DNA of 64,000 nt from Mobula hypostoma. Its lineage: Eukaryota. The DNA lies in NCBI RefSeq assembly GCF_963921235.1, contig NC_086107.1, forward strand, positions 95,730,001-95,794,000, given 5' to 3'. The position numbers and the translations under genes were made by a program. This document shows, piece by piece, positions 6,387 through 64,000 of this stretch (positions within the stretch are counted from its first letter, which is position 1; every line of letters starts with the position of its first letter). The notes under the pieces are model-generated. The model saw nothing but the letters and a program-made list of their open reading frames with translations. It did not search any database and was not told the origin of the DNA.

Positions 6387-6392
6387 TTTATT
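6387..6392 (-). terminator. Polyadenylation signal of the PTH-like gene
   Basis: AATAAA on the minus strand about 90 nt after the TAA stop at 6482-6480. Confidence 0.7.
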
Positions 6393-6479
6393 GGCGTTCA
6401 GGAGCGAATCAGAAGTGTGAGAACAGAGACACCACCTGTCCGCGCTGGATGTCCGTGCTCCCTTGGTCTCTCCACCGCT

Positions 6480-6493
6480 TTAACTATTACATC
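6480..6493 (-). CDS. PTH-like gene: terminal coding exon ((G)CNS-stop)
   Basis: Acceptor ctcttcttgtccag|GA TGT AAT AGT TAA after a 103-bp intron, followed by AATAAA. Confidence 0.7.
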
Positions 6494-8105
6494 CTGGACA
6501 AGAAGAGTCACGTTTTAGTTTGAGAACTTGTCTATATTCTGTTAAAAAGTGAGAAGTAATTTTGTAAAAGCAAAACAGTTACTATGTCACACTGACCTGG
6601 CATATCAGGCGTCAGTCGGCACAGTTTCTCCTTAATATATTGTCTGCGTGCTTCTTCTTCCCTCGCCTTTGCTATTTCGTTCATTAGCACAATTTCAGCA
6701 GTTTCCCTCTTTGCTGCCTCGTTGGGGCCTGGCTTCAGAAAATCAGCGAACCAGCCATCGGCTGGGAGCTCCTCAATTATCTGGGCCCTAGACGTGGACA
6801 AAAACAGCCATCCTGAGCCTGCCAGTGAGGGAATCAGGCCTTGCGGAGTACTGTCTGCAGGAAGGGAAGGGTAGGGCACGGTGTGTCTAAATGGTGGAGG
6901 GTGTCAAAGTTTTGAAAGATGAGGGAAGTGAGGAGGATGAGGAACTGGCACCAATGGTTGGTGGACCAGATTGCCCACTCACATTGCAGCCATGGGGACC
7001 CCTTCACTACTGGCCCTCCATTTCAGGAGCATCCACCCAGGGGAGATGTATTTTATTCGTACTGCCAGTGTCAGTTCATACCTCCCACAATACTGCCTCA
7101 TGTTCCTGCACACCTCCCTCAGTATTGTTCCCTGACACTACCCACCTCCCTCAGAAATGCACACAAAAGCACTACACCACTCCCTCAGAACTGCCCCCTC
7201 TACTGCCCATCTCCCTCAGAACTGCCCCTGACACTGCCCACCTCCCACAGTAATGCCCACCTGTTGCTGAACAGCTCCCTCAGTACCGAGCTCCGGCAGT
7301 AGCCACTTTCCTGACTAATGCCCCGGACACTTCCCTCCTCCCACAGTATTGCCCCAGACACTTATCACCATCCTCCCCCCCCACCCCCCTCAGTACTACA
7401 ACCGTACACTGTCCACCCTCCTCAGTAATGCACTCAAGACACTGCTTCCATCCCGCACTACTGCCCCTGACATTGACTAACTCCTGATTACAGCACCCCC
7501 GCAGAAACTACACACCACCCTCTTAATGGTCCTCCGTTGCTGATCACCTCCCTTGTTACTGCCTCGCCCCAAGTCTGCCCCACTCCCTCAGCCCCGTGCA
7601 TTTTCGGAGCAATGGAAACGTCCTGTAAATTCTTGGTTCCAACTCTCTCCCAGGAAACTGTGTTGGAAGTGTTTGGCTTTGTCAAGTGTCAGTCTGATGC
7701 TCTTCATAACAACTGACACGTGTCAATCACAGAGTGCCTGACGATGAGACAAATATCTCTGTCAGGGCCTGTTTTATGTCTCCCCTGGTTTCCCACAATG
7801 CACTTGGTTAGGCCCCCGAGGGATTCAACCACCTTTTTGTGAGTTAAGACCACCAGCACTTCCTCTCTCTTCTCGTGGACATGATCCAAGCTATCACTAT
7901 TCTCTCCCTGAATTCCCGAGCTCCCATGACCTTCTCCACATTTAATACAGACGGCACGTGGGCAACAACAACTGTTGCTGAGGGGATTTTACCTCTCTGA
8001 GTGTCGAGCCGAGGCAGGAACAGCTTCAGCACACGGGGGTAGGATACAGCTCAGTCCCAGTACCAGTCCCATCAGCAGCACTCGAGCATAGGACCAAGGC
8101 TCCAT
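6480..8105 (-). CDS. Parathyroid-hormone-family prepropeptide, 105 aa, spliced: join(8105-7993, 6787-6597, 6493-6480)
   Basis: Canonical GT-AG introns with pyrimidine tracts and matching phases (2, then 1). Protein: MEPWSYARVLLMGLVLGLSCILPPCAEA-VPASARHSERAQIIEELPADGWFADFLKPGPNEAAKR-ETAEIVLMNEIAKAREEEARRQYIKEKLCRLTPDMPGCNS*. Mature part matches PTH1-28 at E4, I5, L7, M8, K13, R20, K27, L28. Confidence 0.85.
6597..6787 (-). CDS. PTH-like gene: pro-region + KR + mature peptide exon
   Basis: Acceptor ctgtttttgtccacgtctag|G, donor CCAG|gtcagt; 191 bp. KR codons at 6711-6706; mature peptide starts at 6705. Confidence 0.85.
7075..7500. repeat. Degenerate C-rich tandem repeat in a PTH-like gene intron
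   Basis: Recurring cctccc(t/a)cagta..gcccc.gacact units. Confidence 0.6.
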
Positions 8106-8108
8106 GAC
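7993..8108 (-). CDS. PTH-like gene: signal-peptide exon (ATG at 8105-8103)
   Basis: Acceptor ttgtttctctcacag|GTCATGG (good Kozak context) and donor GAG|gtaaaa. Hydrophobic core VLLMGLVLGLSCIL and A-E-A cleavage motif. Confidence 0.85.
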
Positions 8109-9172
8109 CTGTGAGAGAAACAAGAAACAACGGCCTGAATGTTCGTTTCAGGCCCGCGGTAAAACACAGGGCAGGTTGGGGCTGCAGCTTGTGTGAAACC
8201 AGTGGAGTTACATTCTGCCAACGGGACTGGTTCTTCCTCAAGGATGTAGCTGGCAATCGTGGCTGATCCACTTTCCTCTCAACCCCATTCTCCTGGCCTC
8301 TTCCTATAACCTTTCATGCCCTAACTAATCATGAACCTATCAACCTCTGCCTTAAATACACCCAATGACCTGGCCTCCACAGCCACCTGTGGCAACGAAT
8401 TCCACAGATTTGTCATCGTCTAGTTACAGAAATTCCTCCTTATCTCTGTTCTAAATGAATGTCCCTCTATTCTGAGGTTGTGCCCTCTTGCTTGACCGTC
8501 CCCCACTATAGGAAACATCCTCTCCATATCCACTCTATCTAGGTCTTTCAATATTTAATGAGATCCCTCCTCATTCTTCTAAATTCCAGCGAGTTCAGGC
8601 CCAGAACCATCAAATTCATGAACTTCTGGCATAATACTACTGTTTTCCACAGTGAAGACTAATGCAAAATATTTATTTAGTTCATCTGTCATTCCTTTGT
8701 CCCCCATTACTACCTCTCCAGCATTATTTTCCAGTGGTCTGATATCTACTCTCGCCTCCCTTTTACTCTTTATGTATTTGAAAATAAAAAAAGTTTGATA
8801 TCCTCTTTGATATTATTGGCTTGCTTACCTTCATATTTCATCTTTTCCCTCCAGTAGGCTATTTAGTTGCCTTCTGTTGGTTTTTAAAAGCTTCCCACTA
8901 ATGTTTGTTCTATGATGTGCCCTCTCTTTTGCTTTTCTGATGGATTTGACTTCCCATGTCAGCCATGATTGTGTCATTTTGCCTTTAGAATACTACTTGT
9001 TTTTTGGGATACTGTATATCAAGCCTGTGTCTTCCAGATTGTTCTCAGAAACTCCAGCCATTGCTGCTCTGCCATCATCCCTGCTAGTGTTCCCTCCCAA
9101 TCAAATTTGGCCAGCTCCTCTCTCATGTCCCTGTAATTCCCTTAACTCCATAATACTGATACATTTGACTTT

Positions 9173-10708
9173 TGTCACAATGGGGCGGGGGCATACAGCG
9201 CAAGGGTGGACCCAAGTGCAAGACACATCTTGTGAGGTTAATTAAATTGAGTTTATTGTTTGATGCCAGGAGAGCAAAGCAGGAGCAGGAATAGCGAACC
9301 GGACAAGGACTCAGGACTACAACTAGGCTGGGACGAGGGTCTGGGCTACGACTCGGAATTGGATCCCAGAACTAGAGGCGACATGAAGAGGTTACAGTAT
9401 GGACTCCGAGCCAGGGACTGGGCAAGGACCCAGTACCTGGGTCTTGCCTCGGGCTTGGACCCCAGAACCAGGCATGGACATGACATGGGCTAGGGAGAGG
9501 AGGAACATGGAAAGACAGAGCCTCGATCTCAGCAGAGCAGGTACATGGAACCATGGACACATATACAGAACACAGAGTCGGGACCTCTCCTTGGGTACAG
9601 GACAAAAGGCTGGGACTCACACACAGAACAGAGAGCTGGGACCCCTCCTTGGGTACAGGACATAGGGCCGGGACCCATGACCCCCTGCAGGGCGATGGCA
9701 AGACGGCTTGACTTACCCCATGGAGGTGAGGACAAGACAAGACAAAACATAACCTACCGTGGGGCAACGGCAAGATGGCCAGACTTACCCCACGGAGGCG
9801 AGGACAAGACAAGACCAACACAAAAAAATACCGGACAGTACCTATCTAGCTCCGGCGATAGAACTAGACTGAAGTGCAGGCAAGGGCTGCAGACGAGGGC
9901 TAGAGGCGAGAGGGGCAGAGAAGGGATTCAGACAGGGCGGTAGGACAGGAATCACTGACCGCCAGGGCCAGGACTTGACTCGGAACTTGGATGCCGCCAG
10001 GGCTGGGACTCGACTCGGAACCGACTCGGAACTTGGATGCTGCCAGGGCCGGGGCTCGACTTGGAACTTGGATGCCGCCAGGGCAGGGAGTTGACTCGGA
10101 ACTTGGATGCCGCCAGGGACGGGACTTGACTCAGTACGTGGATGCCGCCAGGGCCAGCACTTGACTTGGAACTTGGATGCTGCCAGGGTCAGGACTTGAC
10201 TCGGTACATGGATGCTGCCAGGGCCAGAACTTGACTGGGTATTTGGATGCCCCCGGAGCCAGGACTTGACTTGGAGCCTCCGTTAGTGGTGAGCTCTCGA
10301 CTCGGCCCGGGAACAGTAGACAGCGGTTCTTGATTCCCTCCGGCAGGTTAACTGACGGACCCACCTCGGTGAGGAAACTTTGCAGGCTCGCTTTGGCGAG
10401 GTAACTTGACAGGGTTGCTCCGGTGAGGAAAGGCGAATTACCGGCACTCGCTTCGGGCGGACACTAGGCTTGCTCCAGCCAGATGACATTGGCACACCGT
10501 ACCTTTGGTGACTTTGCAAACACTCTCGCGCTGAACAGCTGAAAGCCGGAGACTATAAACTACCGGTTCAGTCGAGAGTAAATTGCCTCCAATCACCAAA
10601 GCCGAGGGACACAGGAAAACAGGGAATCAAAGGGAAACAGGGAGTCAACGATCCAGATCATAACATAAACAAAGTAAATTGAAAGGGACCCCAATCCAGA
10701 CCATGACA
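9173..10708. mobile_element. Solo LTR (Gypsy-like)
   Basis: Termini TGTCA...TGACA with a perfect 5-bp target-site duplication ACTTT (9168-9172 and 10709-10713). Confidence 0.8.
9960..10275. repeat. ~35-bp tandem repeat inside the solo LTR
   Basis: About 9 units of ggacttgactcggaacttggatgccgccagggcc. Confidence 0.85.
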
Positions 10709-11911
10709 ACTTTAGTTTCTCCCTCTCAAATTTCTGGGTGAATTCTGTCATATTATGATCACTGCCTCCTAAGGGTCCCTTTACCTAAAGCTCTCTAATC
10801 AAATCCTGTCCATTACAGAAAACCCAATCCAGAATAGCTGATCCCCTCGTGGGCTCAACCACAAATTGCTCTAAAAAGCCATGTCATAAGCATTCTTCAA
10901 ATTCTCTCTTGAGATCCAGCACCAACCTAGTTTTCCCAATCTACCTGCATATTACAGTCCCCCATGACTATTGTAACATTGCCCTTTTGACATGCCTTTT
11001 CTATCACCCATTGTAATTTGCAGCCAACTTCCTGACTACTTTTCAGTGGCCTCTATATAACTCCCACGAGGGTCTTTTTACCCTTGCAGTTTCTTATTTC
11101 TACCTACAAGGATTCTATATCTTCCAATCCTATGTCACCTCTTTCTAAGGATTTAATTCCATTTTTTACCAACAGAGCCCTGCCACCCCTCTGCTGATTT
11201 GCCTGACCTTTTGATACACTGTGGATTCTTGGATGTTAAACTCCCAGCTATAATCTTCTTTCAGCCATGACTCAGTGATGCCCACAGCATCATACCTGCC
11301 AATCTCTAAGTGCATACAAGATCATCTACTTTATTCCATAAACTGCATGCCTTCAATTATAATGCCTTCAGTTCTGTATTCATCATCCTTTTCAATTTTT
11401 TCCCCATGTTACATTTCAACTAGTCCCACTGACTGCGATTTTGTCGTAACATCTGCCTGTCCTTCCTCACAGTCTCACTACACACTGTTTGTGCTTGTAT
11501 ATCAACTGCCCCATCCTCATCCCTATGACTCTGGTTTTCACCGCCCTGTAAAATTAGTTTAAACCCTCCCCAACACCTCTAGCAAACCTGTCCACAAGGT
11601 CCCTCTCGGGTTCAGGTGTAGCCCATTTCTTTTGTACAGGTCATATATTCCCCAGAAGGGATACCAATAATCCAGAAATATGAACCCCTGCCCTCTGCAC
11701 CAGTTCCTCAACCACACATTAATCTGCCAAATCATCCTATTCTTACATGGCACAGGCAGCAATCCAGAGATTACTACCCTGGAGGTCCTGTTTTTCAGCT
11801 TTCTACCTAACTCCCTAAACTTTCTTGTCAAGAATTCCTCCCTTTTCCTACCCATGTCATTGGTGCCAATATGTACTATGACTGCCCCTTTAGAACACTG
11901 TGGAGCTGATT

Positions 11912-12217
11912 GTGTTGGCACGTGGTCAAGTGGTTAAGGCATCGGTCTAGTGATCTGAAGGTCGTTAGTTCGAACCTCAGCTGAGGCAGTGTGTTGTGTC
12001 CTTGAGCAAGGCACTGAAATACACATTGCTCTGCGACGACACTGGTGCCAAGCTGTATTGGCCCTAGTGCCCTTGCCTTGGTCAACATCGGTGGCGTGGA
12101 GAGGGGAGACTTGCAGCATGGGCAACTGCCAGTCTTCCATACAACCTTGCCCAGGCCTGCGCCCTGGAAACCTTCCAAGGTGCAAGTCCATGGTCTCACG
12201 AGACTAGCAGATGCCTT
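11912..12217 (+). mobile_element. tRNA-derived SINE (family A)
   Basis: A box TGGTCAAGTGG, B box GTTCGAAC, body tgtgtccttgagcaaggcac. Five copies in the window. Confidence 0.85.
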
Positions 12218-13121
12218 TAAGGAGCTGATCCAAAACATCCCTGACTCAGACACCCGGGAGGCAACATATCTGCATGTCTCTGTTGTGTTCACAGAACCCT
12301 GCGTCTACTTCTCTAAATATGGAATTCCCTTTTTCCCTTCTGAGCCACAGTGCCAGATTCAGTGCCAGAGACCCGGTTGCTGAGCCCCAGTAGGTCTGTC
12401 CCCCAACAGTATCCAAGACAGTAGACTTATTACTGAGGGGAATAGCCACAGGGGTACTTTGCAATAGCTGCCCATTTCCATTCCCCCCCCCCCACCCCGA
12501 CAGTCACCTCACCCTATTTGCCCTCGCAAATGAATCACTATTTGATTGTGCCGCAATGAAAATGCCACAAGCCAGCAGACGCTCCTTTTTAAAATCTCAG
12601 TCATGGACTTGTAGGTCACCTCCTCTCCTGCTCCTGATTTGACTGGATTGCGGGGAAAAAAAAGTTAATAATTTAAGTAATCAGTTACTGTCAATTGAAT
12701 GATTACCCACTCGCTACTTGTCACTAGTTAGTGGAGACAGTGTAGGTTGCAGGCATTTTTCCCCATATCAGTGGTGGACAGACCAAGTGACCGTAGATTT
12801 AGGGTAAGTGGGAAGAGGTTCAGGGAGGATACAAAGGGATCTCTTTCACACAGAAAGTGGTGAGTACCTGGAATTTTCTGCTGGACAGTGCAGTTGTACT
12901 GGAGTCACTGACAGCATTTAAGAAGTTTCTTGATGAACACTTGAATCCCTCAGAAGGTCAAGTGCTGGAAGTTGGGCTTAGTGCAGATGAGAGCCCATTG
13001 TTTGGTGTGATGGGACTATGTCCATCTCCCGATGAACTGGCCACTGGTGAGGATTCTGACAACAAATATTAAATTATAAACAGATTTCTTTTCTGAAATG
13101 AAAAAGTTCTTGGCAACTTAC

Positions 13122-13410
13122 AGTTTCCTTCTGTGGGTGAGTTGGACGATGACCACTTCTGCTCAGCCCTTTGTCTGGTCGATGCCAGCAGGCAGAGGAA
13201 CCAAAGGAAGAGTGCAGGACACTGACTGATAGAGGGCAAGATCCTTGTCTTCGGTTGTTGCCAGGGACTGAACCAACGTGTGAGCCGCTTCCTGGATGCT
13301 GTGTCTGTTGCCACTGAGGCAGACGGTGCCTTTAATGCACCTGTCAGCTCACTCAGCCGTACGAAGTCCCACCCCTTCTCCTCCCCTCCCCTGGAACTCA
13401 GTCAGTGAAT
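13122..13410 (-). promoter_or_regulatory. Probable promoter and non-coding exon 1 of the PTH-like gene
   Basis: G-rich boxes, TATA-like CATTAAA (13337-13331), ~185 nt ATG-free leader ending at donor ACT|GTAAGT (13121-13116). Conserved in an inverted copy at 58240-58610. Confidence 0.6.
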
Positions 13411-13654
13411 TGCTCTTCGCCCCACACGTCTCCTTTAAACTTTCACTCTTACCTACATGTTCTCTAGTATTTGACATTTCTACCTTGGGGAAAAAGATAT
13501 TCTGACTGTCTCCCCTACTTATGACTCTCTAATTGTGTATTTCACAATTCCACTCAGATCCCCACTCAGTCCTTGCTTCTTCAGAAAAAACAAATTAACT
13601 GGTCCTTGGTCCATCCTGCTGACAGTGGGTAGCACATGGGAGACTGGGATTCAG

Positions 13655-14195
13655 TTCCCTGATTGGGAAGAGCTGACTGGTGAGCTCACACTTGGAGTAT
13701 TGTGTATACTCTCCTGATTGGGAGAGAGTTGGGTGGTGAGACCACATTGGAGTAATGTGTATACTTTCCTGATTGGGAGGGAGTTGGGTGATGAGACCAC
13801 ATTGGAGTAATGTGTATACTTTCCTGATTGGGAGGGAGTTGGGTGGTGAGATTGTATTGGAGTATTGTGTATACTCTCCTGATTGGGAGAGTGTTGGGTG
13901 GTGAGACCATATTGGAGTATTGTGTATACTTCCCTGATTGGGAGAGAGTTGGGTGGTGAGACCATATTGGAGTAATGTGTATACTCTTCTGATTGGGAGA
14001 GTGTTGGGTGGTGAGACCATATTGGAGTAATGTGTATACTTCCCTGTTTGGGAGAGAGTTGGGTGGTGAGACCATATTGGAGTAATGTGTATACTCTTCT
14101 GATTGGGAGAGTGTTGGGTGGTGAGACCATATTGGAGTAATGTGTATACTTTCCTGATTGGGAGGGAGTTGGGTGGTGAGATTGTATTGGAGTAC
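13655..14195. repeat. 55-bp minisatellite, ~9-10 units
   Basis: Unit start recurs every 55 bp (gattg at 13716, 13771, 13826, 13881 ... 14156). Unit: gattgggagagagttgggtggtgagaccatattggagtaatgtgtatactctcct. Confidence 0.95.
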
Positions 14196-16752: not shown

Positions 16753-17060
16753 AAGGCATCCATTAGTCTTGCGAGACCATGGATCTGCACCTGGAAAGTC
16801 TTCACTCTCCAGGGCGCAGGCCTGGGCAAGATTGTATGGAAGACAGGCAGTTGCCCATGCTGCAAGTCTCCCCTCTCCACGACACCGATGTTGTCCAAGG
16901 GAAGGGTATTAGGACCCATACAGCTTGGCACCGGTGTCATCGCAGAGCAATGTGTGATTAAGTGCCTTGCTCAAGGACACAACATCTTCCCTCGGCTGGG
17001 GCTCGAACTCACGACCTTCAGGTCGCTAGTCCAATGCCTTAACCACTTGGCCACGTGCCC
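16753..17060 (-). mobile_element. tRNA-derived SINE (family A)
   Basis: Reverse complement of 11912-12217. Confidence 0.85.
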
Positions 17061-23694: not shown

Positions 23695-24004
23695 GGCATC
23701 CGTTAATCTTGCGAGACCATGGATCTGCACCTGGAAAGTCTTCACACTCCAGGGTGCAGGCCTGGACAAGGTTGTATGGAAGACAGGCAGTTGCCCATGC
23801 TGCAAGTCTCCCCTCTCCACGCCACCGATGTTGTCCAAGGGAAGGGTATTAGGACCCATACAGTTTGGCACCGGTGTCGTCGCAGAGCAATGTGTGATTA
23901 AGTGCCTTGCTCAAGGACACAACACATTGCCTCGGCTGGGGCTCCAACTCACGACCTTCAGATTGCTAATCGAATGCCTTAACCACTTGGCCACATGCCC
24001 ACAC
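23695..24004 (-). mobile_element. tRNA-derived SINE (family A)
   Basis: Same sequence family as 11912-12217. Confidence 0.85.
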
Positions 24005-24039
24005 ATCAGAATTACTATAAAATTTATAAAATAAATAAA

Positions 24040-28189: not shown

Positions 28190-29420
28190 TGCATTATGAT
28201 ATGCAAGGAGGAGATTGGCAAGCTCCTGATTCAGCGTCAGTGCAGTGTGTTCTGCCAACATTTCTCACAGTGCGTTCTTTAGACTCTGGACAAACTTTCT
28301 GCCAAACCATGGTACGGTGCAGATGTAATGTGTCTAATTCCATTCATTTTCAGGAATGGCTGGAACTGCTCCTCAACAAACTGTGGTCCATTTTGCGCAC
28401 CAGATCTTGTAAAGAGGCCTCTCAACACATCTACAGTGTGTGAGGCTGTTGGGCACACTTCTGGCCACTTTGTAGCTGCATCCATTACTGCCAAGAAATT
28501 TGTGCCCATGAATGGTCCAACAAAATCCACATGTGTTATCTGCCAGGGCAATGCAGGCCATTCCCAGGGATGGACAGGGCAGCTCTTGGCATCTTTTGTG
28601 AAGTGTTGGCATCTCAACCAGTGCATGACAAACAGTTCGATCTGCTGATCTATCCCAGGCCACCAGACAAAGCTTTGAACCAACAAAAATGGCTGTCTAG
28701 TAGCTCCTCCAGCACTTTAGGTCCCGGTTTGGATGGTAATGACAACTCTCAATTCTCCGCATAAGGCAAACCCCAACAAGGCCAAGTTCATCCTGGCACT
28801 GATTTGCATCAGGGAGAATGTATCAAGAGGAATGTCCTCTTTTGTAAATTTTTCAGGTATTTCCTTTTCTAAGGATAGACAGGACAATCCATAGGCATTT
28901 CCATGATTAGTTGTCCTCTTGAATCCAATCTTGTAATTGCATCCTCCAAGAAACAGAGCCCATCTCTGCATTTGTGTTGTTGCTGTTGGTGGAATTCTGT
29001 GGATTGAAACTGGACACTTGTGGTTGGTCAGTAATGAGCATAAACTCTCTCCATACAAGTACTGGTTGAAACGTTTTACACCCCAAACCAAACTCAAGGC
29101 TTCTCCATCGATCTGTTCATAACTTTTCTCTGCAGCGGTAAAGGAACGTGATGCAAAAGGCTCTGGGGCATTCACTTCCATCACTCATAACACGTGACAT
29201 GGTGGCGCCTATACATTTGGTATAGATATAGGCACTTTCACAGGCAAGTTTCACTGGATGATGTGGATAATAATGTGTCAGTACTGTGTCTGATATCGCC
29301 ATTTCCTTTATCTTTTGGAAAGCCACCTCACACTGCTTTGTCCATTGCCATTTCTTCCCAATCTGTAGTAATGAGTTGAAGGGGTAGAACACAGTCGCTA
29401 ATTTGGCAGGAACCTGTTCT
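28190..29420 (-). mobile_element. Gypsy pol fragment (RNase H + integrase), decayed
   Basis: FASRS...EKSYEQIDGEALSLVWGVKRF; VWWPGID, HVDFVGPF, NGIRHITSAPYH. Confidence 0.85.
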
Positions 29421-34329: not shown

Positions 34330-35800
34330 TAACTCTAACTCTATGTATGCCAAATCTTGGTGTCATCTGCAAATCTGTGGACCCAGTCTACATTATCATC
34401 TAAATCAGTAACAACAAAGGACCCAGCACCAATCGCTGTGGCACGTCACTAGTCACAGGCCCCCAGTCAGAGAGGCAATTATCTACTACCAATCCCTGGC
34501 TTCTTCTGCAAAGCCAACATCAAATCCCATTGACTACTTCAACCTGAGTGCCATGTGACTTAACCTTCTGGACCAGCCTCCCATAGGGACTTTGTTAAAG
34601 ATCTTGCTAATGACCTTGTAGACAATGTCCATCACCTTTCTTTCATCAGCCTCCTCAAAAAACTTTGTAAGATTGGTTAGTTATGACCTACTGCACACAA
34701 AACCATATTGACTATTGTAATTAGGTTCTACTTATCCAAATACTTACATATCCTGCCCTTAGAAAACCTTCCGATAATTTACTCTCGACTGACGTCAAAC
34801 TCATTGGCCTTTAATTTCCGGACTTATTCTTGGAGCCTTTCTTGAACAACCAAACAACATTTCATAAGGACATTTTAAATATCTCAGCCTTGGCCCTTGC
34901 TGCATTAGACTCCCACAAGGTCCAAGGGGACACCTTATCTGACTCCGGGGATTTATCCACCCTAATCTATCTCGGGACAGCCCGCAACTCCCCTTTCGTA
35001 ATTTGGATATGGTTTATGACCTCACTAATTTTTTCCCTCAGTTCTATGGACTCTGTGTGTCTCTCAACTAAACAGAGATACAAAAATTTAATTTAAGATC
35101 TCCCCCATCTCTTTCTGCTCCAACCATAGCTGATCACGCTGATCTTTAAGAGGACCAGTGTTATCCCTTGCTACCCTTTTTCGAAGATCTAAAGAAGCCC
35201 TTGGGATTCTTTCTTACCTTCTCTGCCAGAGCAGCCTCATCTTCTCTTCCAGGCCTTGTGATTTCTCTCTTAAGTGTTCTTTCGCATTTAATATACTCTT
35301 CAAACGTCTCAACTGATTCGAACTACCTACACCTGATATGTGCCTCCTTCTTTTTCTTTACTAGGGCCTTAATATCTCTTGATTGCCAAGGTCCCCTAAA
35401 CCTGTTAGCCTTACCAGGAACATACAGATTCTGTACTCTCTCGATTCCCTCTGATGCCATCAAAATTGGCCTTTCTCCAACTTAGAATCTCAATCTGAGG
35501 ACCAGTCCTATCCTCCTCCATAATTATCTGAAAGTAATAGAATTCCAATAGCTCCAAAGTGACCTGTACACATTTCTGTCACCTGTGCTGTCTCATTCCC
35601 TAATACAGACCCAGTATAGTAGTTGGGACTGCTACATATTGATGAACATATTTGATGAACTCTAACCCACCCATCCCTTTTACCGTCAATATACAGAAAG
35701 TTACCTGCTATCAAAACCTTACATTTCCGGCAACTGTCTGCTATCTCTCAATAAATTTATTCCTCTAAATCCCGCTGAGTATTTGGAGGTCTATAATTAA
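34330..35800 (-). mobile_element. Old decayed CR1 LINE
   Basis: Degenerate RT and endonuclease-region similarity to the other CR1 copies. Confidence 0.65.
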
Positions 35801-35801
35801 T

Positions 35802-36106
35802 AGGCATCCATTTGTCTCGTGAGACCATGGATTTGTGCCTTGGAAGGTTTCCAGGGTGTAGGCCTGGGAAAGGTTGTATGGAAGACCAGCAGTTGCCCAT
35901 GCTGCAAGTCTCCCCTCTCCATGCCACTGATGTTGTCCAAGGGAAGGGCATTAGGACCAATACAGCTTGGCACCAGTGTCGTCACAGAGCAATATGTAGT
36001 TAAGTGCCTTGCTCAAGGACACAACACACTGCCTCAGCCAAGGCTCGAACTAGCGACCTTCAACTCACTAGACAAACGCCTTAACCACTTGGCCACGCGC
36101 CAACAC
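35802..36106 (-). mobile_element. tRNA-derived SINE (family A)
   Basis: Same family as 11912-12217. Confidence 0.85.
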
Positions 36107-36587
36107 AAGGTCCATAATATAGTCCTATTAATGTGGTCATCTCTTTTTTTTTTCTTATTTCCACTTGTGGTAACTCATTAGATGAGACGTCCAGAATGTG
36201 TTGGCCGAGCAGTTACATGACACTTTCCCTGATGAGTAATGCCACCCCTCCCCCTTTGATCCCTCCCACTCTGTCATGCCTAAAACAACAGAATATTGAA
36301 CTGCCAAACCTGCCCCTCCTGCAACCAAGTCTCATTAATAAGACCATAAGATACTGGAGCAGAATTAGGCTATTCGGCCCATTGAGTCTCCTCCGCCATT
36401 TGATCATGGCTATTCCATTCCCCCTTTCAATCCCATTCTGCTGCCTCCTCCCCATAACCTTTCACACCCTGACTTATCAAGAACCTATCAACCTCCACTT
36501 TAAACACACCCCATGACCGGGCCTCCACAGCTGCCTGTAGCAACAAATTCCCCAGATTCACCACCCTCTGCCAAAAGAATTTCCTCA

Positions 36588-44912: not shown

Positions 44913-45220
44913 TGTGTTGGCGCGTGGCCAAGTGGTTAAGGCGTTCGCCTAGTGATCTGAAGGTCGCTAGTTCAAGCCTAGGCTGAGGCAGCGTGTTGTG
45001 TCCTTGAGCAAGGCACTTAACCACACATTGCTCTGCGACAACACCAGTGCCAAGCTGTATGGGTCCTAATACCCTTCCCTTGGACAACATCGGTGGCGTG
45101 GAGAGGAGAGACTTGCAGCATGGGCAACTGCTGGTCTTCCATACAACCTTGCCCAGGCCTGTGCCCTGGAAACCTTCCAAGGCACAAATCCATGGTCTCA
45201 CGAGACTAACGGATGCCTAA
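44913..45220 (+). mobile_element. tRNA-derived SINE (family A)
   Basis: A box TGGCCAAGTGG, B-box-like GTTCAAGCC, A-rich tail. Confidence 0.85.
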
Positions 45221-48173: not shown

Positions 48174-51100
48174 AACATAGAACATAGAATACTACAGCAC
48201 AGTACAGGCCCTTCGTCCCACAATGTTGTGCCGACCCTCAAACCCTGCCTCCCATATAAGCCCCCACCTTAGATTCCTCCATATACCTGTCTAGTAGTCT
48301 CTTAAACTTCACTAGTGTATCTGCCTCCACCACTGACTCAGGCAGTGCATTCCACGCACCAACCACTCTCTGAGTAAAAAACCTTCCTCTAATATCCCCC
48401 TTCAAATTCCCACCCCTTACCCTTAAAGCCATGTCCTCTTGTATTGAGCAGTGGTGCCCTGGGGAAGAGGCGCTGGCTATCCACTCTATCTATTCCTCTT
48501 ATTATCTTGTATACCTCTATCATGTCTCCTCTCATCCTCCTTCTCTCCAAAGAGTAAAGCCCTAGCTCCCCTAATCTCTGATCATAATGCATACTTTCTA
48601 AACCAGGCAGCATCCTGGTAAATCTCCTCTGTACCCTTTCCAATGCTTCCACATCCTTCCTGTAGTGAGGCAACCAGAACTGGACACAATACTCCAAGTG
48701 TGGCCTAACCAGAGTTTTATAGAGCTGCATCATTTCCTCGCGACTCTTAAACTCTATCCCTCCACTTATGAAAGCTAACACCCCATAAGCTTTCTTAACT
48801 ACCCTATCCACCTTTGAGGCAACTTTCAGCGATCTGTGGACATGTACCCCCAGATCCCTCTGCTCCTCCACACTACCAAGTATCCTGCCATTTACTTTGT
48901 ACTCTGCCTTGGAGTTTGTCCTTCCAAAGTGTACCACCTCACACTTCTCCGGGTTGAACTCCATCTGCCACTTCTCAGCCCACTTCTGCATGCTATCAAT
49001 GTCTCTCTGCAATCTTTGACAATCCTCTACACTATCTACAACACCACCAAACTTTGTGTCATCTGCAAACTTGCCAACCCACCCTTCTACCCCCACATCC
49101 AGGTTGTTAATAAAAATCACAAAAAGTAGAGGTCCCAGAACAGATCCTTGTGGGACACCCCTAGTCACAATCCTCCAATCTGAATGTACTCCCTCCACCA
49201 CCACCCTCTGCCTTCTGCAGGCAAGCCAATTCTGAATCCACCTGGCCAAACTTCCCTGGATCCCATGCCTTCTAACTTTCTGAATAAGCCTACCGTGTGA
49301 AACCTTGTCAAATGCCTTACTAAAATCCATATAGATCACATCCACTGCACTACCCTCATCTATATGCCTGGTCACCTCCTCAAAGAACTCTATCAGGCTT
49401 GTTAGACACAATCTGCCTTCACAAAGCCATGCTGACTGTCCCTATCAGACCATGATTCTCTAAATGCCTATAGATCCTATCTCTAAGAATCTTTTCCAAC
49501 AGCTTTCCCACCACAGTGAGTAAGGCTCACTGGTCTGTAATTACCCGGACTATCCCTACTACCTTTTTTGAACAAGGGAACAACATTCGCCTCCCTCCAA
49601 TCCTCTGGTACCATTCCCGTGGACAACGAGGAATTAAAGATCCTAGCCAGAGGCTCAGCAATCTCTTCTTTCGCCTCGTAGAGCAGCCTGGGGAATATTC
49701 TGTCAGGCCCCAGGGACTTATCTGTCCTAATGTATTTTAACAACTCCAACACCTCCTCTCCCTTAATGTCAACATGCTCCAGAACATCAACCTCACTCAT
49801 ATTGTCCTCACCATCATCAAGTTCCCTCTCATTGGTGAATACTGAAGAGAAGTATTCATTGAGGACCTCGCTCACTTCCACAGCCTCCAGGCACATCTTC
49901 CCACCTTTATCTCTAATCGGTCCTACCTTCACTCCTGTCATCCTTTTTTTCTTCACATAATTGAAGAATGCCTTGGGGTTTTCCTTTACCCTACTTGCCA
50001 AGGCCTTCTCATGCCCCCTTCTTGCTCTTCTCAGCCCCTTCTTAAGCTCCTTTCTTGCTTCCCTATATTCCTCAATAGACCCTTGCTTCCTAAACCTCAT
50101 GTATGCTGCCTTCTTCCACCTGACTAGATTTTCCACCTCACTTGTCACCCATGGTTCCTTCACCCTACCATTCTTTATCTTCCTCACCGGGACAAATTTA
50201 TCCCTTACATCCCGCAAGAGATCTCTAAATATCGACCACATGTCCATAGTACGTTTCCCTGCAAAAACATCATCCCAATTCACACCCGCAAGTTCCAGCC
50301 TTAAAGCCTCATAATTTGCCTTTCCCCAATTAAAAATTTTCCTGTCCTCTTTGATTCTGTCCTTTTCCATGATAATTATAAAGGCTAGGGAGCGGTGGTC
50401 ACTGTCCCCCAGATGCTCACCCACTGAGAGATCTGTGACCTGACCCGGTTCATTACCTAGTACTAGATCTAGTATGGCATTTCCCCTGGTCGGCCTGTCC
50501 ACATACTGTGACAGGAATCCATCCTGGACACACTTAACAAACTCTGCCCCATCTAAACCCTTGGAACTAATCAGGTGCCAATAAATATTAGGGAAGTTAA
50601 AGTCACCCATGATAACAACCCTGTTATTTTTGCACCTTTCCAAAATCTGCCTCCCAATCTGCTCCTCTGTATCTCTGCTGCTACCAGGGGGCCTATAGAG
50701 TAACTGCTCCCTTCCTGTTCCTGACTTCCACCCATACTGACTCAAAAGAGGATCCTGCTACATTACCCAGCCTTTCTGTAGCTGTAAGAGTATCCCTGAC
50801 CAGTAATGCCACCCCTCCTCCATTTTTTCCACCCTCTCTATCCCTTTTAAAGCACTGAAATCCAGGAATATTGAGAATCCATTCCTGCCCTGGTGCCAGC
50901 CAAGTCTCTGTAATGGCCACTACATCATAATTCCATGTACATATCCAAGCTCTCAGTTCATCACCTTTGTTCCTGATGCTTCTTGCATTGAGGTACATAC
51001 ATTTCAGCCCTTCTACCTTACTGTCTTTACACCGTTTATTCTGCTTCTCTTTCCTCAAAGCCTCTCTGTATGTTAGATCTGGCTTTACTCCATGCACTTC

Positions 51101-52190
51101 TTTCACTGCTCTATCGCTCTGGGTCCCATCCCCCTTGCAAATTAGTTTAAACCCTCCCGAACCATGCCAACGAACCTACCTGCAAGGATATTGCTCCCCC
51201 TCGAGTTCAGGTGCAACCCATCCAATCTGTACAGGTCCCACCTTCCCCAGAAGAGATCCCAATGATCTAAAAATCTAAAACTCTGCTCCCTGCACCAACT
51301 CTTCAGCCACGCATTCAACTGCCATCTCCTCCAATTCTTACCATCACTGTCACGTAGCACTGGCAGCAATCCTGAGAACGTCACCCTTGAGGTCCTGTTC
51401 TTCAGCCTTCTGCCTAATTTCCGAAACTCACACTTCAGGACCTCATCCCTCTTCCTGCCTATGTCGTTGGTCCCAACATGTATCACGACTTCTGGTTACT
51501 TTCCTTCTCGTACCAGGATGTCGTGCACCTGGTCAGAGAGATCCCGGACCCTGGCACCCGGGAAGCAACAAACCATGCGGGTGTCTTCTCACGTCCACAA
51601 AATCTCCTGTCTGCTCCCCTGACTATAGAGTCTCCAATGACGTCAGCTCTCCTCTTCTCCGTCCCACCCTTCTGCACCACAGGGTCAGACTCAGTGCCGG
51701 AGGCCCTGCCATCGTGGATCACCCCTGGTTGGTCGTCCCCACCAACAGTCTCCAGGACGGTATACTTATTATTCAGGGGAATGGCTACAGGGGTGCTCTG
51801 CACTACCTGTCTGCTCACCTTCACTTTCTCCCCTCTGACTGTCACCCAACGACCTGCTTCTGGCAGCCTAGGTGTGACTACCTCCCTGTAGCTCGCATCT
51901 ATGACAGCCTCATTCTCCCTTATGAGTCAAAGGTCATCCAGCTGCTGCTCCAGATTCCTTACACGGTCTTCCAGATCGCCCAGCCGTATGCACTTCTGGC
52001 AGATGTGACTCTGCGGGAGAGGGGCGTTCCCCCAAGACTGCCACCTCTCACATGAGAGGCACATCACCGTCTCAGGAGACATTGTAAAAACTAACTGCAA
52101 GCTAGCTTGTCCTCCACCTCTTCTCATCGAAGCCTCTCGAATCAAAGCCTCAAAGCTCCACTCCTTCACTGGCCCACTCACTCACTCACG
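48174..52190 (-). mobile_element. Near full-length CR1 LINE (ORF1 zinc finger + SGNH esterase; ORF2 APE + RT), frameshifted
   Basis: CLSC..W...HICQKC, VIGDSIVR, HVGTND, DGLHLN (ORF1); YLNARSI, ITETWL, GDFN, SDH (APE); YMDFSKAFD, FADD (RT); (TTCTATG)n tail. Confidence 0.95.
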
Positions 52191-54619: not shown

Positions 54620-55355
54620 TGGAGACCCAGTTACAGTGATGGTGATGTGAGGTTGTATGTTCAGAATTCCGTTCCCGGTCACTAACCGGGGCCATGGTCC
54701 CAGTTACAGTGGTGGTGTGAGTGTGGTTGTATGTTCAGAATTCCGTTCCCGGTCACTAACCGGGGCCAGTTCAGAATTCCATTCCCGGTCACTAACCGGG
54801 ACCATGGTCCCAGTTACAGTGGTGGTGATGTGAGGTTATATGTTTAGAATTCCGTTCCCAGTCACTAACCGGGGCCATGGTCCCAGTTACAGTGATGGTG
54901 TGAGTGTGGTTATATGTTCAGAATTCCGTTCCCGGTCACTAACCGGGGCCATGGTCCCAGTTACAGTGATGGTGATGTGAGGTTGTATGTTCAGAATTCC
55001 ATTCCCGGTCACTAACCGGGGCCACGGTCCCAGTTACAGTGGTGGTGTGAGTGTGGTTGTATGTTCAGAATTCCGTTCCCGGTCACTAACCGGGGCCAGT
55101 TCAGAATTCCGGTCCCGGTCACTAACCGGGACCATGGTCCCAGTTACAGTGGTGGTGTGAGTGTGGTTATATGTTCAGAATTCCGGTCCCGCTCACTAAC
55201 CGGGGCCATGGTCCCAGTTACAGTGGTGGTGTGAGTGTGGTTGTATGTTCAGAATTCCGTTCCCGGTCACTAACCGGGGCCAGTTCAGAATTCTGTTCCC
55301 GGTCACTAACCGGGGCCATGGTCCCAGTTACAGCAGTGGTGTGAGTGTGGTTATA
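54620..55355. repeat. ~73-bp minisatellite with a ~33-bp sub-repeat and internal hairpin
   Basis: Unit cccagttacagtg(a/g)tggtg..gttgtatgttcagaattccgttcccggtcactaaccggggccatggt. Confidence 0.95.
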
Positions 55356-55644
55356 TTATTAGACTACTGATCAGTGTTTACAATGACATTTCTAAATGTC
55401 ACAGAGCTGACAGTTTGTCATTGCTGAGAATCTGCTCACCTTTACAGAGTGTGACAACTGATGATTAAAATGGTATGTGCTTTCTGCTGCCTTTGACAGG
55501 ATCCTGACTCTGAATAACTCGGACCGCGCACTGACAGAGCAGACTCAAGAAGCCTGAACTGGGCAATGGCAGACTTCTGCACAACTGCTGACCTCCACGA
55601 CAGAGACAAGGCCTTGAGGTGACTTAACTGGAATAAACGCATCT

Positions 55645-57490: not shown

Positions 57491-58239
57491 GGATGAATTT
57501 TTTCTTCCACAGTTTGATTTGAGGCATGACTTCGCAGGTGCGTAGATGTCAGTGAGTTAGACCAGTGGGAAGAATTTAAAAAGAAACTGGCTTTATAGAG
57601 CGGGTGTCAGAGTAAGTGGGCTTTGGCTCAACGGGGCTTCGGTGGGTTAAGTTACTTGTGAAGAGTAGGAAGGATGTCTGCGAGGCCAGGGCCGGGTTAG
57701 GAAACTGGAGATGCAGCTCAAAGACCTTCATCTAGTCAGGGAAAATGAGGAGGTGATAGATAGGAGTTATAGGCAAGTAGTCACACCGGGGCCTCGGGAG
57801 ACAGATAAGTGGGTAACAGTCAGAAGAGGGAAGGGCAAGAGTCAGATACTAGAGAGTACCCCTGAGGCTGTCCCCCTTAACAATAGGTACTCCTGTTTGA
57901 TGCTGTTTTCACTCAGCCAGGGAATGGAGGACATTGACCATATACAGGCAGATGGGGTAAGTTAGGCTAGCATCATGGTCGGTGCAGATACGATGGGCCA
58001 AATGGCCTGTTCCGGTTCTGTTCTGTGTTTGTGTCTTTAACAGCTTCTCAAAAGGCTTTGGGGGAAAGAAAGGAGGGAAAAGGAATGTTACATCTGAAAA
58101 GATCTTGACAGAATACATCTTTCTTATAAAAAGCAAAGGGAATAGTGTTGAGGAGCGCAGTGTCGAGTGTGGGTACCAGGCATTCTTCCCCTGAAACTGT
58201 TCAGCAGTCCCTCCCCTCTGCACAATGGCTTTGAGCTGT

Positions 58240-58610
58240 TCACTGAGACTGAGCTCCAGGGGAGGGGAGGAGAAGGGGTGGGTCTTCGTACAACTGAGTG
58301 AGCTGACAGGTGCATTAAAGGCACCGTCTGCCTCAGTGGCAACAGACAGCACCCAGGAAGCTACTCACACGTTGGCTCAGTCCCCGGCAACAACCGAAGG
58401 GAAAGAGCTCCCTGTCCGTCAGTCAGTGTCCTGTACTCCTCCTCTGGTTCCTCTGCCCGCTGGCATCGTTGAACAGACGTGGTCACCATCCAACACACCC
58501 ACAGAAGGAAACCGTAAGCTTCATATTGCTGGGGACCAAGTTATTTAGAAAAGAATTCTGTTCGTAGTGTGATAGCAATTGTCAGAATCCTTACCAGTGG
58601 CCAGTTAGCC
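58240..58610 (+). promoter_or_regulatory. Inverted paralogous copy of the PTH-like promoter/exon 1
   Basis: Reverse-complement match to ~13037-13410, including CATTAAAG (58313-58320), an ATG-free leader and donor ACC|GTAAGC (58514). Confidence 0.6.
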
Positions 58611-58619
58611 AGTTTCATG

Positions 58620-59240
58620 CAACCAGTGGACAGTGTGAGTTGGCAGTTAAACTCACAGGCAGTTAATTAGCCAGAGTTCAAAAAACAATAATTAATTAGT
58701 GATAAATAACTAGCAGACAAATAATCAGGGGTATTTAATAAGCTGATTGTTAACCGTTGTTTGTAAATCAGCAATATTAGCAGTATCAATTAATCAAAGG
58801 GCAACCAGCTACCATACAATTAATTTAGTACTGGTCAATGTATTGGGTTAATTGTTTGGCATAGTTACCTGTGTCAAATAACCATGAGGTATTTTAATAA
58901 ATTATTTGATAGGATGTTAGCCATTGAACATTATTGATTAGTGAACAGTAAGTGACCAGCAGAAATCATTAACGGTCAATCAGGCAGCAGTTAACCAGAG
59001 GTAGTTAATTAGTGGGTGACTGGCAACTAATGAAGCAACAGTTAATTAGAATGAACTAGTGGTAGTTAGCTAACAGGCAAATAATAAATGGCAATAATTA
59101 ATAACTATTAATGAATGGTCAGTTAGTCAGTGGCAGCTCCCTCCATGATAGTTGCTAAACTAAGGAAAATGCTAGCGGGGTTAGTTAATGAGTGGTTAAT
59201 AATCACGCAGTGAACCGCAAGTTGCTGCAGTTAATTAGTT
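58620..59240. repeat. AT-rich degenerate low-complexity tract
   Basis: Recurring cagttaattag / ggcagtt / aataat motifs. Confidence 0.5.
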
Positions 59241-59399
59241 GGCTGTGAGGTACTGGTTCAGGATCAGGTTGCGGGGACTGGGTTATGAGGTTGCTCTTAG
59301 ATTCTGTTGCACCTTATTGCAGAGGTTAGGGGGTCTTGAGAGTTACGATGGGGAGGGGGAAACAGGCTTGGGCAAGCACAGGCAGAGGTTCTAAGTAAG

Positions 59400-62300
59400 T
59401 TTCTATTCTCTATTAGTACACAGCTAGTCTGCTGAGAACAAGTCTGGAGATAGTGGTATGTCTTTGCATGAGCTGTGGGAATGCTGGGAGAACTGGGACT
59501 ACATCTACATGAAGTATAACGAGCTGCAGCTCCCTGCGGACTGTGTTAAGGAACTGAAGCTGTAACTCAATGACCATACAGGAAAATGAGGTGGTGATAG
59601 ATAGGAGCTACAGGGAGGTAGTCACCTGCAAGTTTCAGGAGGCAGGTACCTGGGCGACCGTCAGGAGAGGAAAAGGAAATAGGCAGTCAGTGCAGAGTAC
59701 TCCCATGGCCATTCCTCTCGTTTTTAGGTATACTGCTTTGGACACTGTTGTGGGGATGACCCACCAGGAGGAAGCTGCAGTGACTACGTCTGGCTCTGTA
59801 GCTCAGCAGGGAAGGGGGAGAAGACGAGTGAAGTAGAGACAAGGGATTCCATAATCAGAGGAGCAGAAAGCAGATTCTGTGGATGCGATAGAGACACCAG
59901 ATGGTATGTTGCTTCCCTAATGCCAGGAATGTCTCGGATCGGGTCCACGGTATACTCAAAGGGGAAGGTGAACGGCTGGAAGTTGTGGTACATATTAGTG
60001 GGCATGGGTAGGAAAAAGGAGGAGACAGAATCCTAAAAAGCAGGACCTTCAGGGTAGTAATCTGTGGATTGCTGCCTGTCAGTGAGGGTAAGAATGGGAT
60101 GATTTGGCAGATGAGTGCATAGCTGAAGGATTAGTGCAGGGGGATCATTGGGATCTCTCCTCAGCAAGGTATGAGCTGTACAAAAAGAATGGGTTACACC
60201 TGAACCTGATATCCTTTCTGACATGTTTGCTAGAGTTAATTTAAACTAATATGGCAGGAGGATGGGGAACTGAGTGATGGGGAAGTTGGTATACAGCTAG
60301 ATCAGTGTGTAATGAGACTGTGAGGAAGTACAGGCAGATGTCAGGGCAAAATTGCAGTCAGTGAGATGAGTTAAAGTGTAATGGGGCCAAGATCAAAAAG
60401 GATGATGAATAGAGAACTGAAGGTGTTGTATCTGAATGCACACAGTATGCAGAATAAAGTAGACGATCTTGTAGCACAGTTAGAGATTGGTAGGAATGAT
60501 GCTGCGGGCATTGCCTGAATGGTGGCTGAAAGAAGATCGAAGTTGGGAGCATAACATCCAAGGATACACATTGTATCAAAAAAAAGGCAGATAAGCAAAG
60601 GGGGGTGGGGTGGCTCTGTTGGTTTACAAAAATGAATTCAAATCCTTCAAAAGCGGTGGCATACCTGTCGGTAGAGTTACGAAACTGCAAGGGTAAAAAG
60701 ACCCCGATGAGAGTTATATACAGGCTACCAAACAGTAGCCAGGATGTGGGTTACACATTACAGTAGGAGACAGAAAAGGCAGGTAAAAAGGGCAATGTTG
60801 TGATGATCATGAGGGATTTCAACAGGCAGGTAGATTGGAAAAATCAGCTTGGTGCTGGATCCCAAGAGGGAATTTGTAGAATGCCTACAAGATGGCTTTT
60901 TTAGAGCAGCTTGTGGTTGAGCCCACTAGGGGAAAGGCATTTCTGGATGGGGTGTTGTATAATGACCCATATTTAATTGGGGAGCTTTAGGTAAAGGAAC
61001 CCTTAAGAGGCGATGATCATAATATGATAGAATTCACCCGATAGTTTGAGAAGGAGAAGCTAAAGTTGGATATATCATTATTGCAGTGGAATAAAGGGAA
61101 TTAGTGGCATGAGAAAGAAGCTGGCCGAAGTTGACTGGAAGGATACACTCGTGGGAATGACAGCAGAACACAATGGTTGGAGCTGCTGGGGAAAATTCAA
61201 ATGGTACAGAATAGATACTTCCCAAAGAAGTATTGTAAAGGGAGGATGAGCCAACAGTGGCTGATAAGGGAAGTCAAAGACAAAAGCTAAAGAGAGGCCA
61301 CATAATACAGCAGAAGTTAGTGGGAAGTTAGACAATTGGGGAGCTCTTAAAAACCAACAGAAGGAAACTAAAAATGCCATAAAGAGAAAAAAGATGAATT
61401 ATGAAGGTAAGTGAGACAATAGTGTAATAGAGGGTAATTTTTTTTTCAGAAATATAAAGAGTAAGAGAGATGAGGGTGGATATTAGACCGCTGGAAAATG
61501 ATGCTGGAGAGGTAGTACGGGGGACAAAGAAATGGTGGATGAACTGAGTAAGAATTTTGCATCAGTCTTCACTGCGGAAGACACTAGCAGAATGCTAGTT
61601 AAATTAGAGTAGCAGGGGGAAGAAGTGAGTGTAGTTGCTATTAATAAGGAGAAGATGCTCAGCAAGCCGCAAGGTCTGTAGAAAGACAAGTCATCTGGAT
61701 CCCCCAGGATTCTGAAAGAGGTAGCGGAAGAGATTGTGTAGGTATTAGTAATGATATTTCAAGAATCTCTACGTTCTGGAAAGGTTCCTGAGAACTGGAA
61801 AATTGCAAATATCACTGCATTTTTTTTTAAAAGAGGGAGGGAGGCAATAGAAGGGAAATTATAGGATAATTGGCCTGACTTCAGTGGTTAGAAAGCAGTT
61901 GGAGTCTATTATTGAGAGCGAGGTTTTGGACTACTTGGAGGCACATGATAAAATGGGCCAAAGTCAACAAGGCTTTCTGAAAGGGAAATCTTGCCTGACA
62001 GATCTGTTGGAATTCTTTGAGGAAATAAGATACAGGATAGACAAAGGAGAGTCAGTGAAAGTTGTCATTTGGATTTTCAGAAGACTTTTGACAAGGTGTT
62101 GCATTCGAGCCCATGGTATTACAGGAAAGGTACTAGTATAGATAGAAGATTGACTGACTGACTGACAAGAGGCAAAGAGTGGGATAAAGGGGGCCTTTTC
62201 TGGTTGGCTGGCAATGAGTAGTGATGTGCCGCAGGGGTCAGGGTTGGGACAATTTCTTTTCATGTTCTACTGTATGTCATTAATTTGGATGAAGGAATTG

Positions 62301-62410
62301 ACTGCTTTGTGACCAAGTTTGTAAATGATACTAAGATGGGTGGAGGGGCAGGTGGTGTTGAGGAAGCAGGGTGTCTGTAGAAGGACTTGAACACATTGGG
62401 GGAATGGGCA
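59400..62410 (+). mobile_element. Old decayed CR1 LINE (ORF1 through RT)
   Basis: QSVQSTPMAIPL, SQQGFLKGKSCLTDLLEFFEEI remnants with many stops. Confidence 0.8.
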
Positions 62411-63113
62411 ATGAGTGATTCTAGGGAATAATACCTACCCCATCAATTCTCCGTTAATCACCAGTTCACCTTCCCATCCCTCCCATAACAGAAATGTACC
62501 ACCACTCCTACCTTCTCACTGTTGTTACAGAACTCAACACACCCATCAACACAGCTTGGCTATAATCATGTCCTCTGGGTACAGTCGCAGCCAGTTGTCC
62601 CTCCTCCTGTACAGCCCCTTCCCACCCAGGGCAGTTACAATCAAGCCTCCTGGGACACTGTCACTGTCAGGTCCCTTCAGCAGCTACTGAGAATTGAACA
62701 GTGCTGGACGAGAGGAAAACAAAGCCTTTCAGATCCCAGTCTCGTACTGACCTGCAGGTTTAGCGTCTCGCCACTATGATTGAGGTTTCTGAAGCAGTAA
62801 ACAAGGTCGATAAGGGTTGGTTAGTTGTGGTGTTTGTAGACTTCAGTCAGTACTTTGATAAGGTCCTACGTGGTAGACTGCTATCTGGTTGCATGGGATC
62901 CAGGCAGAGCTGTCTAAGTAGATCCAGAATTGGCCTGATTATAACAAGCAGAGGATGATGAAGGGAGGATGTTACTTTCAGACTGGAGGGCCGTGACTAG
63001 TGGGGTGCCTCTGTTCAGAGAACATTGAATATAGAACAGTACAACACAGGAACAGGCCCTTGGCTCACAATGTTGTACCAAACTAATTAAACTAGTAATT
63101 GAAAGCCTAACTA

Positions 63114-63415
63114 GGGCCGGCTGGTGGCGCAACGACATCAGCGCCAGACCCGGGAGCGGAGGTTCCAGGGTTCGAAACTAGCTGGGTCCACTCCCGTGTA
63201 CACTTTCCATCCATGCCGGGTTGAGTGTCAAGATCGCAACTCGACCTCATAAAATAAAGGGAAAATACTGCGAAAATGTCTGTGTAAGGAGTGGCGCACC
63301 ACGCAGTCTCTCTCTCTCTCTCACTCTGCGCCTTGTAAAAGACATGAAAAAGACATCATCACGGACGCATGTACACGCACAAACTCGCACGCACGCAGGC
63401 ACACAACAAAAAAAA
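63114..63415 (+). mobile_element. tRNA-derived SINE (family B)
   Basis: TGGCGCAACG A-box-like and GGTTCGAAAC B-box motifs; simple-repeat and A-rich tail. Confidence 0.55.
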
Positions 63416-64000
63416 AAGCCTAACTAACCAATCCCTTTTGCCTATAGAAGACCTTATCTCTCCATCTCTCTACATTTGTATACCTATCTTAGAGCCTCTT
63501 AAACGCCTCTATCACACGTGCCTCCACCACTACCCCTGGCAGTGCATTCCAGACACCCACCGTTTTGTGTAAAAGAACTTGCCCTGCACATTTAATTGAA
63601 CTTACTTTAAATCAGGAATTCCTAACTTGGGGTCCATGGCATAAAAGCCCTGCTTTAAATGCATGCCCTCAGGTATTAAATTTTTCAACCTTGGGTAAAA
63701 GATGCTGTATGTCTACTCTATCTATTTTCAAACTCAACACCTTGATTAATAAAGGCAAGCATGTCACATGCCTTATCATCCGTTCAACCTGTGCATTCAC
63801 TTTCAGGGAATTATAAATCCCTAAATCCCTCTGTACACCAACACTGCTAAGGGAGCTGCCATTACTGCATACTGTCTTTTATTCACATTTGCTTTCCCAA
63901 AGTGCAACACCGCATGTTTTGTCGTGTTGACTGCATGACTTTAACTTCGAGCCCAATAAAATCATCTTCACTTCATTGAACACACCATCTCGCAACTCAT

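Follow-up and report, generated by a model that had tools for sequence, protein, structure and literature searches.

The parathyroid hormone (PTH) family comprises four ohnologues, all of which have been reported from elephant shark (PMC5640766, PMC3483286). Residues V2, Q6, H9, R20, L24 and L28 are described as conserved across the family in PMC3009671, and positions 8 to 10 read M-H-N, M-H-D or L-H-D there and in PMC4354418. According to the latter, MHD is present in all elephant-shark PTH peptides, and cAMP signalling depends on the first residues (PMC4354418). With respect to the arrangement of duplicated segments, staggered-break inversions are described (PMC7584159) as leaving inverted duplications at both ends.

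The window, that is, the whole 64,000-nucleotide stretch of DNA that was analysed and whose repeats suggest a ray or shark, contains a real, old, two-copy, promoter-centred inverted duplication. Comparison of the window with itself by BLAST aligned 13035–13415 on the minus strand (copy A) with 58233–58606 on the plus strand (copy B) over 390 columns at 80.3% identity (E 1.9e-98), thereby reproducing the inverted match of about 370 bp between 58240–58610 and 13037–13410 from which the original prediction had started. Both copies are head-to-head, 44.8 kb apart, with copy A reading leftwards and copy B rightwards, and the window has no third copy; a search with 18 nt of the core that tolerated up to 3 mismatches gave two sites, versus 0.07 expected. 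As had been predicted, identity is strongest around a TATA-like box, where 55 bases are without difference between the copies (25 common 31-mers, starting at 58294–58318); this length derives from the 31-mers, and the gapped alignment gave 52. The names TATA-like and E-box-like, together with the start site placed at about 58344 near the end of the core, are assumptions based on consensus sequences. The ATG-free leader and the GTAAG donor described earlier were seen in both copies, the donor being located at 13121 in copy A and at 58514 in copy B, and no ATG precedes it in either. Position and anatomy suggest that the block comprises a promoter and an exon 1 (Table 1).

Table 1. Coordinates of the features at the two copies of the inverted block and at the associated peptide gene (gene A)
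Feature	Position	Strand	Remarks
Unique upstream flank of copy B, not in copy A	58040..58232	+	No match to 8/8 LINE pieces
Copy B: proximal promoter, predicted non-coding exon 1, donor, ~90 bp of intron	58233..58606	+	80% identity to copy A
Core with E-box-like CAGGTG and TATA-like CATTAAAG (58313-58320)	58294..58348	+	Identical in copies A and B
Copy B, predicted non-coding exon 1	58344..58513	+	142/168 identical to copy A; ATG-free
Copy B donor GTAAG	58514..58518	+	No other letter listed in runs X5, X9, X12
Presumed copy B intron 1: AT-rich, LINE ~59409-62411 in sense, repeat fragments, no coding exon	58607..64000	+	
LINE 3'-end fragment adjoining copy A upstream	13416..13655	-	Above all 200 shuffles for 7/8 LINE pieces
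Copy A: putative gene A promoter plus exon 1; donor GT 13121-13120	13035..13415	-	Match to copy B
Antisense LINE 3'-end fragment ending copy A downstream	12730..13034	+	BLAST matches; shuffle test
Sense LINE in gene A intron 1, split by a SINE-like and another insert	8256..12490	-	Subfamily and orientation as LINE behind copy B
Gene A exon 2: signal-peptide-like segment; ATG at 8105, 3 nt past the acceptor	7993..8108	-	Hydropathy peak 2.85
Gene A exon 3: Lys-Arg site between acidic pro-region and the first 36 residues of the predicted mature peptide	6597..6787	-	
Gene A exon 4: final four codons including the second Cys; stop at 6482-6480; AATAAA at 6392-6387	6387..6493	-	

Three coding exons located about 5 kb downstream of copy A on the same strand encode 105 residues (gene A), and the earlier reading of a 105-aa precursor was reproduced with exons at 8108–7993, 6787–6597 and from 6493 onward. 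With just 3 nt of exon 2 preceding the ATG, the gene requires a further, non-coding exon upstream, and the block, being conserved, non-repeat and equipped with a TATA-like box and a donor, is a candidate for exon 1 of gene A. Intron 1 of the gene spans 5 kb and is repeat-filled, and intron 2 is filled by a degenerate 31-bp G-rich minisatellite (7061–7553). The predicted mature peptide consists of 40 residues, to which exons 3 and 4 each contribute one Cys, and its exon-3 part was modelled as one long helix (21–58; single-sequence model, pLDDT 77).

Queries of 38–63 residues from the exon-3 peptide retrieved no homologue in a word-index search, in phmmer (1.84 billion representatives) or in the ESM Atlas, and comparison with PDB sequences returned just a ribosomal protein (E 1.4–1.7). 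Fold searches with the single-helix model were uninformative: Foldseek gave 0 matches, and VIA-align reached a best Z of 5.1 with generic coiled coils, no peptide hormone being present among the best 50 matches. Metagenome scans with the peptide and with the promoter core produced no match, and a literature search whose coverage leaves out most subscription papers found no paper on the peptide gene.

The affiliation of gene A to the PTH family was assessed by comparison with the published descriptions. No Pfam family was assigned to either of two exon-3 queries at E values up to 10, in a search whose filters drop most matches above 0.1. Among the six residues named as conserved in the family, the gene A peptide is identical at two (R20, L28), carries Ile in place of L24 and differs at V2, Q6 and H9; its positions 8 to 10 read M-N-E instead of any of the triplets reported there. 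None of the genes neighbouring PTH-family members (ARNTL/BTBD10, MRPS35, SFRS3) was recognised within the window. In the published gene structure of the family, two exons encode the prepro-peptide and an intron immediately precedes Lys-Arg; gene A has three coding exons, as stated for PTHrP in PMC3009671, and its Lys-Arg ends at residue 27 of exon 3. It also shows a signal peptide, a dibasic site, a helical 1–34 region and a putative non-coding exon 1, features that are generic for many peptide hormones. On the family-specific features compared, membership of gene A in the PTH family fails; the label "parathyroid hormone" is unjustified, and "PTH-like" is weak. The original interpretation is partly supported: the two blocks do lie head-to-head 44.8 kb apart, and the designation as a PTH-like cluster goes too far, with two of six residues identical and no Pfam assignment. 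From its architecture, the peptide could nevertheless fairly be expected to work like a class B1 GPCR ligand, and its acidic-basic amphipathic helix may fit ligands of the glucagon/secretin type about as well as PTH, with the register shifted by one residue.

The copy number of the block was evaluated with contigs from 4 of the 21 listed runs (X1, X5, X9 and X12, all genomic), aligned to 58040–58800 at 80% likeness; 13 of the 16 pieces across all runs were listed. Run X1 (organism A; 29.8 million contigs, about 96% read) yielded 10 aligned contigs. Over the block, the B type reached a depth of 21.2 and the A type a depth of 10.8, and a collapsed 55-nt core contig had a depth of 38.1, equivalent to 1.8 times the single-copy value (21.2). 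Only two block types appeared in X1, in an alignment from which copies below about 90% identity would escape, as did copy A exon 1 (85% alike). The two types, together with the 1.8-fold core depth, indicate two copies and not a dispersed repeat, so the high-copy repeat that had been named as one outcome speaking against the original prediction was not encountered. A dispersed repeat, or a LINE 5' end belonging to the element behind the block and borrowed by gene A, is accordingly a highly improbable origin of the block: a sense LINE does follow both copies and older copies below about 90% identity would go unseen in the read alignment, but related LINE 5' parts near 22200, 51900 and 57700 in the window lack the block, and equivalent LINE positions lie 631 and 1150 bp from the two donors. 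Word shares of 0.04–0.07 in X10–X15 are explicable by the common core alone (25 of 421 31-mers), and these runs, except for X12, were left uncounted. Contigs of the genomic runs X9 and X12 cross the copy B donor unspliced. Behind copy B, X1 also contains a second haplotype at a depth of about 11, which skips 48 bases in 58601–58650, with 13 differing letters in between, and has a loose end at 58745, and organism C has 23 gap letters in the AT-rich zone there.

The surroundings of the two copies differ. The flank upstream of copy B has single-copy depth in X1 and is found in X5 and, from 58103, in X12; it is possibly the native upstream region of copy B. LINE 3'-end fragments adjoin copy A at either end, the downstream one scoring above all 200 shuffles for four of eight LINE pieces and with P < 0.05 for all eight, and consequently the block of about 380 bp is no measure of the duplicated length. 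Beyond the block, neither the preceding nor the following sequences of copies A and B exhibited homology above shuffles, and the alignment of the AT-rich stretches behind the two blocks was not above chance (P 0.11). A 55-bp tandem array (13658–14194; 9.8 copies, 90% matches) is situated 240 bp upstream of copy A.

The LINEs behind copies A and B share 74% identity over 1110 columns and 71% over 567, the one behind copy B being presumably of CR1 type. Their divergence (99/459) is close to that of the block intron (20/86), and they agree with each other at 360 of 459 sites, compared with 343 and 339 agreements with a third copy. Exclusive sharing followed a 59:42:38 ratio (P 0.07) and four-taxon sites an 11:9:9 ratio, an unconvincing grouping of the two elements, and LINE insertion before the duplication is therefore only possible as judged from these sequences. 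The LINE used as outgroup (48177–52190, minus strand) is near full-length and young-looking, with a recognisable 5' end. Within gene A intron 1, the insert that splits the LINE at 9172–10707 includes a 35-bp tandem array (9959–10275) and itself resembles, by eye, an LTR-type remnant.

Several other elements populate the window. At its start, a 755-codon open frame on the plus strand (34–2301), cut by the window edge and with matches to RVT_1 (E 1.7e-20) and zf-RVT, marks a non-LTR retroelement that is unusually intact and differs in type from the LINEs around it. A 310-bp SINE-like element occurs in five copies of 83–94% identity (11910–12220, 16754–17060, 23694–24031, 35797–36108 and 44913–45219), a decayed antisense fragment at 28300–29350 resembles by eye the pol region of an LTR retrotransposon, and a compound 36/74-bp minisatellite with higher-order periods occupies 54626–55356.

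Related organisms provided information on the age of the duplication. A single contig of organism B spans the whole copy B stretch and departs from it by 12 letters and 1 gap, and organism C covers 58490–58681 of it. Organism E, in which copy B is covered in part, contains the B type with B's flank as well as the A type with A's flank, and since both types are present in this organism, the duplication is older than the split between organisms A and E. A-type contigs in X1 and X12 have loose ends that match the window upstream of 13405 when compared by eye. Between organisms A and E, copy B outside its promoter differs at 18 of 314 listed sites (about 5.7%).

Identity between copies A and B is highest in the promoter (101/106), lower in exon 1 (142/168) and lowest in the intron (66/86), and the promoter stands apart from exon and intron taken together (208/254; Fisher P 0.0007). 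If only copy A had been constrained, four yardsticks would predict 13.5, 12.4, 10.3 and 8.7 differences in the promoter, where 5 were seen; the deficit has P values of 0.005 (intron rate), 0.012, 0.049 and 0.13, respectively. With exon 1 as the neutral yardstick, the excess identity of the promoter is not significant (P 0.13), and because region borders were fixed after the alignment had been seen, these P values are generous. The 59 core bases at 58288–58346 exhibit no listed change between organisms A and E in copy B (P 0.03), although 1 of the 11 differences of the E contig is unlisted and may fall within the core, and the whole promoter of copy B, changed at 4 of 114 sites, is not significantly slower than the rest (P 0.46). 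The copy B donor has no listed change in any of the three other organisms (B, C and E). The conservation gradient, together with a box and donor that are unchanged wherever the related organisms cover them, is better explained by a live promoter than by a dead copy.

The opposite reading, namely that copy B is an orphan that makes no peptide, is possible but rather unlikely. Copy B would then represent either the footprint of a 45-kb staggered-break inversion, with the unique flank, the block and the exons as the ancestral order, or the head of a duplicate without surviving coding exons, and its core would have been kept by chance or by occasional conversion from copy A. The layout fits a staggered-break inversion of the kind outlined in PMC7584159, with a unique upstream flank at copy B and exons plus an upstream LINE fragment at copy A, and no coding exon appears before 64000. 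Promoter identity nevertheless exceeds the expectation for a copy dead since birth at three of the four yardsticks (P 0.005–0.05), and sense LINEs of the same subfamily stand behind both copies.

Conversion from copy A could keep the core of a dead copy B intact, and two sites bear on this point in favour of the orphan reading, as their letters are common to both copies within a species: 58261 is G in both copies of organism A and T in both copies of organism E, and 58287 is C in both copies of the former and T in both of the latter. Against it, 58287 is a CpG site, where the same change may arise repeatedly, the probability of one parallel site is 0.07–0.12, and copy-specific letters at 58283 and 58293, on either side of 58287, persist in organisms A and E, so any conversion tract must be very short. 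Short-tract conversion between the copies is thus taken as a hint only. As a firm claim it was rejected, with one non-CpG site and organism E contigs of depth 3.4–3.6.

Returning to a live copy B, the chance that it heads a sister gene with coding exons past 64000 is in our view about even. In agreement with the original observation, tblastn and blastn found no match to gene A coding exons 2–4 in 58514–64000 or elsewhere in the window (best stray E 0.096), and a signal-peptide scan of 58514–64000 gave two weak ATG segments, both within a LINE and without acceptor. In-window repeat matches cover 60% of 58514–64000, whose end still lies inside nested repeats. The same-subfamily sense LINE behind both copies and the repeat-filled intron 1 of gene A favour a sister gene. 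No RNA run was listed as containing the copy B stretch, which carries no weight regarding its expression. A live promoter might instead have been re-used, by a non-coding RNA, by an unrelated gene further on or as an enhancer of gene A across 45 kb, which would explain the conservation of core and donor without unseen exons. We consider such re-use quite improbable, as no transcript was seen and the window holds no unrelated gene to serve: the whole of it was read, and only repeats were recognised besides gene A. Rfam revealed no family in the window.

For the sister gene, we propose that a small gene of four exons, encoding a secreted prepropeptide, was copied head-to-head by an old local inverted duplication. 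The sister gene would begin with copy B as its promoter and non-coding exon 1, and retroelements would have swollen its intron 1, leaving its coding exons beyond 64000. Selection would keep a short core in both promoters, consisting of a G-rich box, E-box-like and TATA-like motifs and the start site; both genes would probably be switched on in similar cells, and cleavage at Lys-Arg would release related helical peptides whose target would be a class B1 GPCR. This mechanism is ordinary, and the gene is unnamed. If true, the sister gene would supply the first homologue for an orphan peptide, the two diverged copies displaying the residues that are kept, and would offer the quickest route to discriminate between another class B1 ligand and a PTH-type ligand that would add a fifth member to the four ohnologues from whole-genome duplication. 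It would also indicate which receptor to test, and would reveal that several related species retain a pair of hormone-like genes absent from annotation. If copy B were an orphan, the block would be no more than the ordinary scar of a duplication, marking an old inversion. A bolder extension, which we regard as unlikely, is a hidden two-gene family of orphan class B1 ligands in rays, either a fifth PTH-related or a separate lineage, with a C-terminal disulphide loop and head-to-head twin promoters; selection, together with short-tract conversion between the inverted arms 45 kb apart, would prevent their cores from diverging.

Compared with known systems, gene A resembles the PTH, PTHrP and PTH-L genes (PTH1, PTH3 and PTH4) in its putative non-coding first exon, in the signal peptide on its own exon, in the Lys-Arg preceding a helical peptide of at least 34 residues, and in M8, R20 and L28 in the published register. 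It differs from them in a 27-residue pro-region after the intron, where in those genes Lys-Arg follows close behind the intron, and in an extra coding exon that closes a possible disulphide loop. Like TIP39/PTH2, presented in PMC4354418 as the divergent family member without MHD, gene A lacks MHD; unlike TIP39, for which three exons are given there, it has four, and no Pfam or PDB sequence match. The lack of a Pfam or PDB match applies equally to the comparison with ligands of the glucagon/secretin type. Regarding the duplication itself, two inverted copies flank a segment here as they do in the inverted Attacin pair and at the O7 breakpoints of Drosophila subobscura (PMC7584159). In contrast to such local inverted duplicates with concerted evolution, conversion is here only hinted at between two old copies that have diverged by about 20% and resemble each other chiefly in the 55-bp promoter core.
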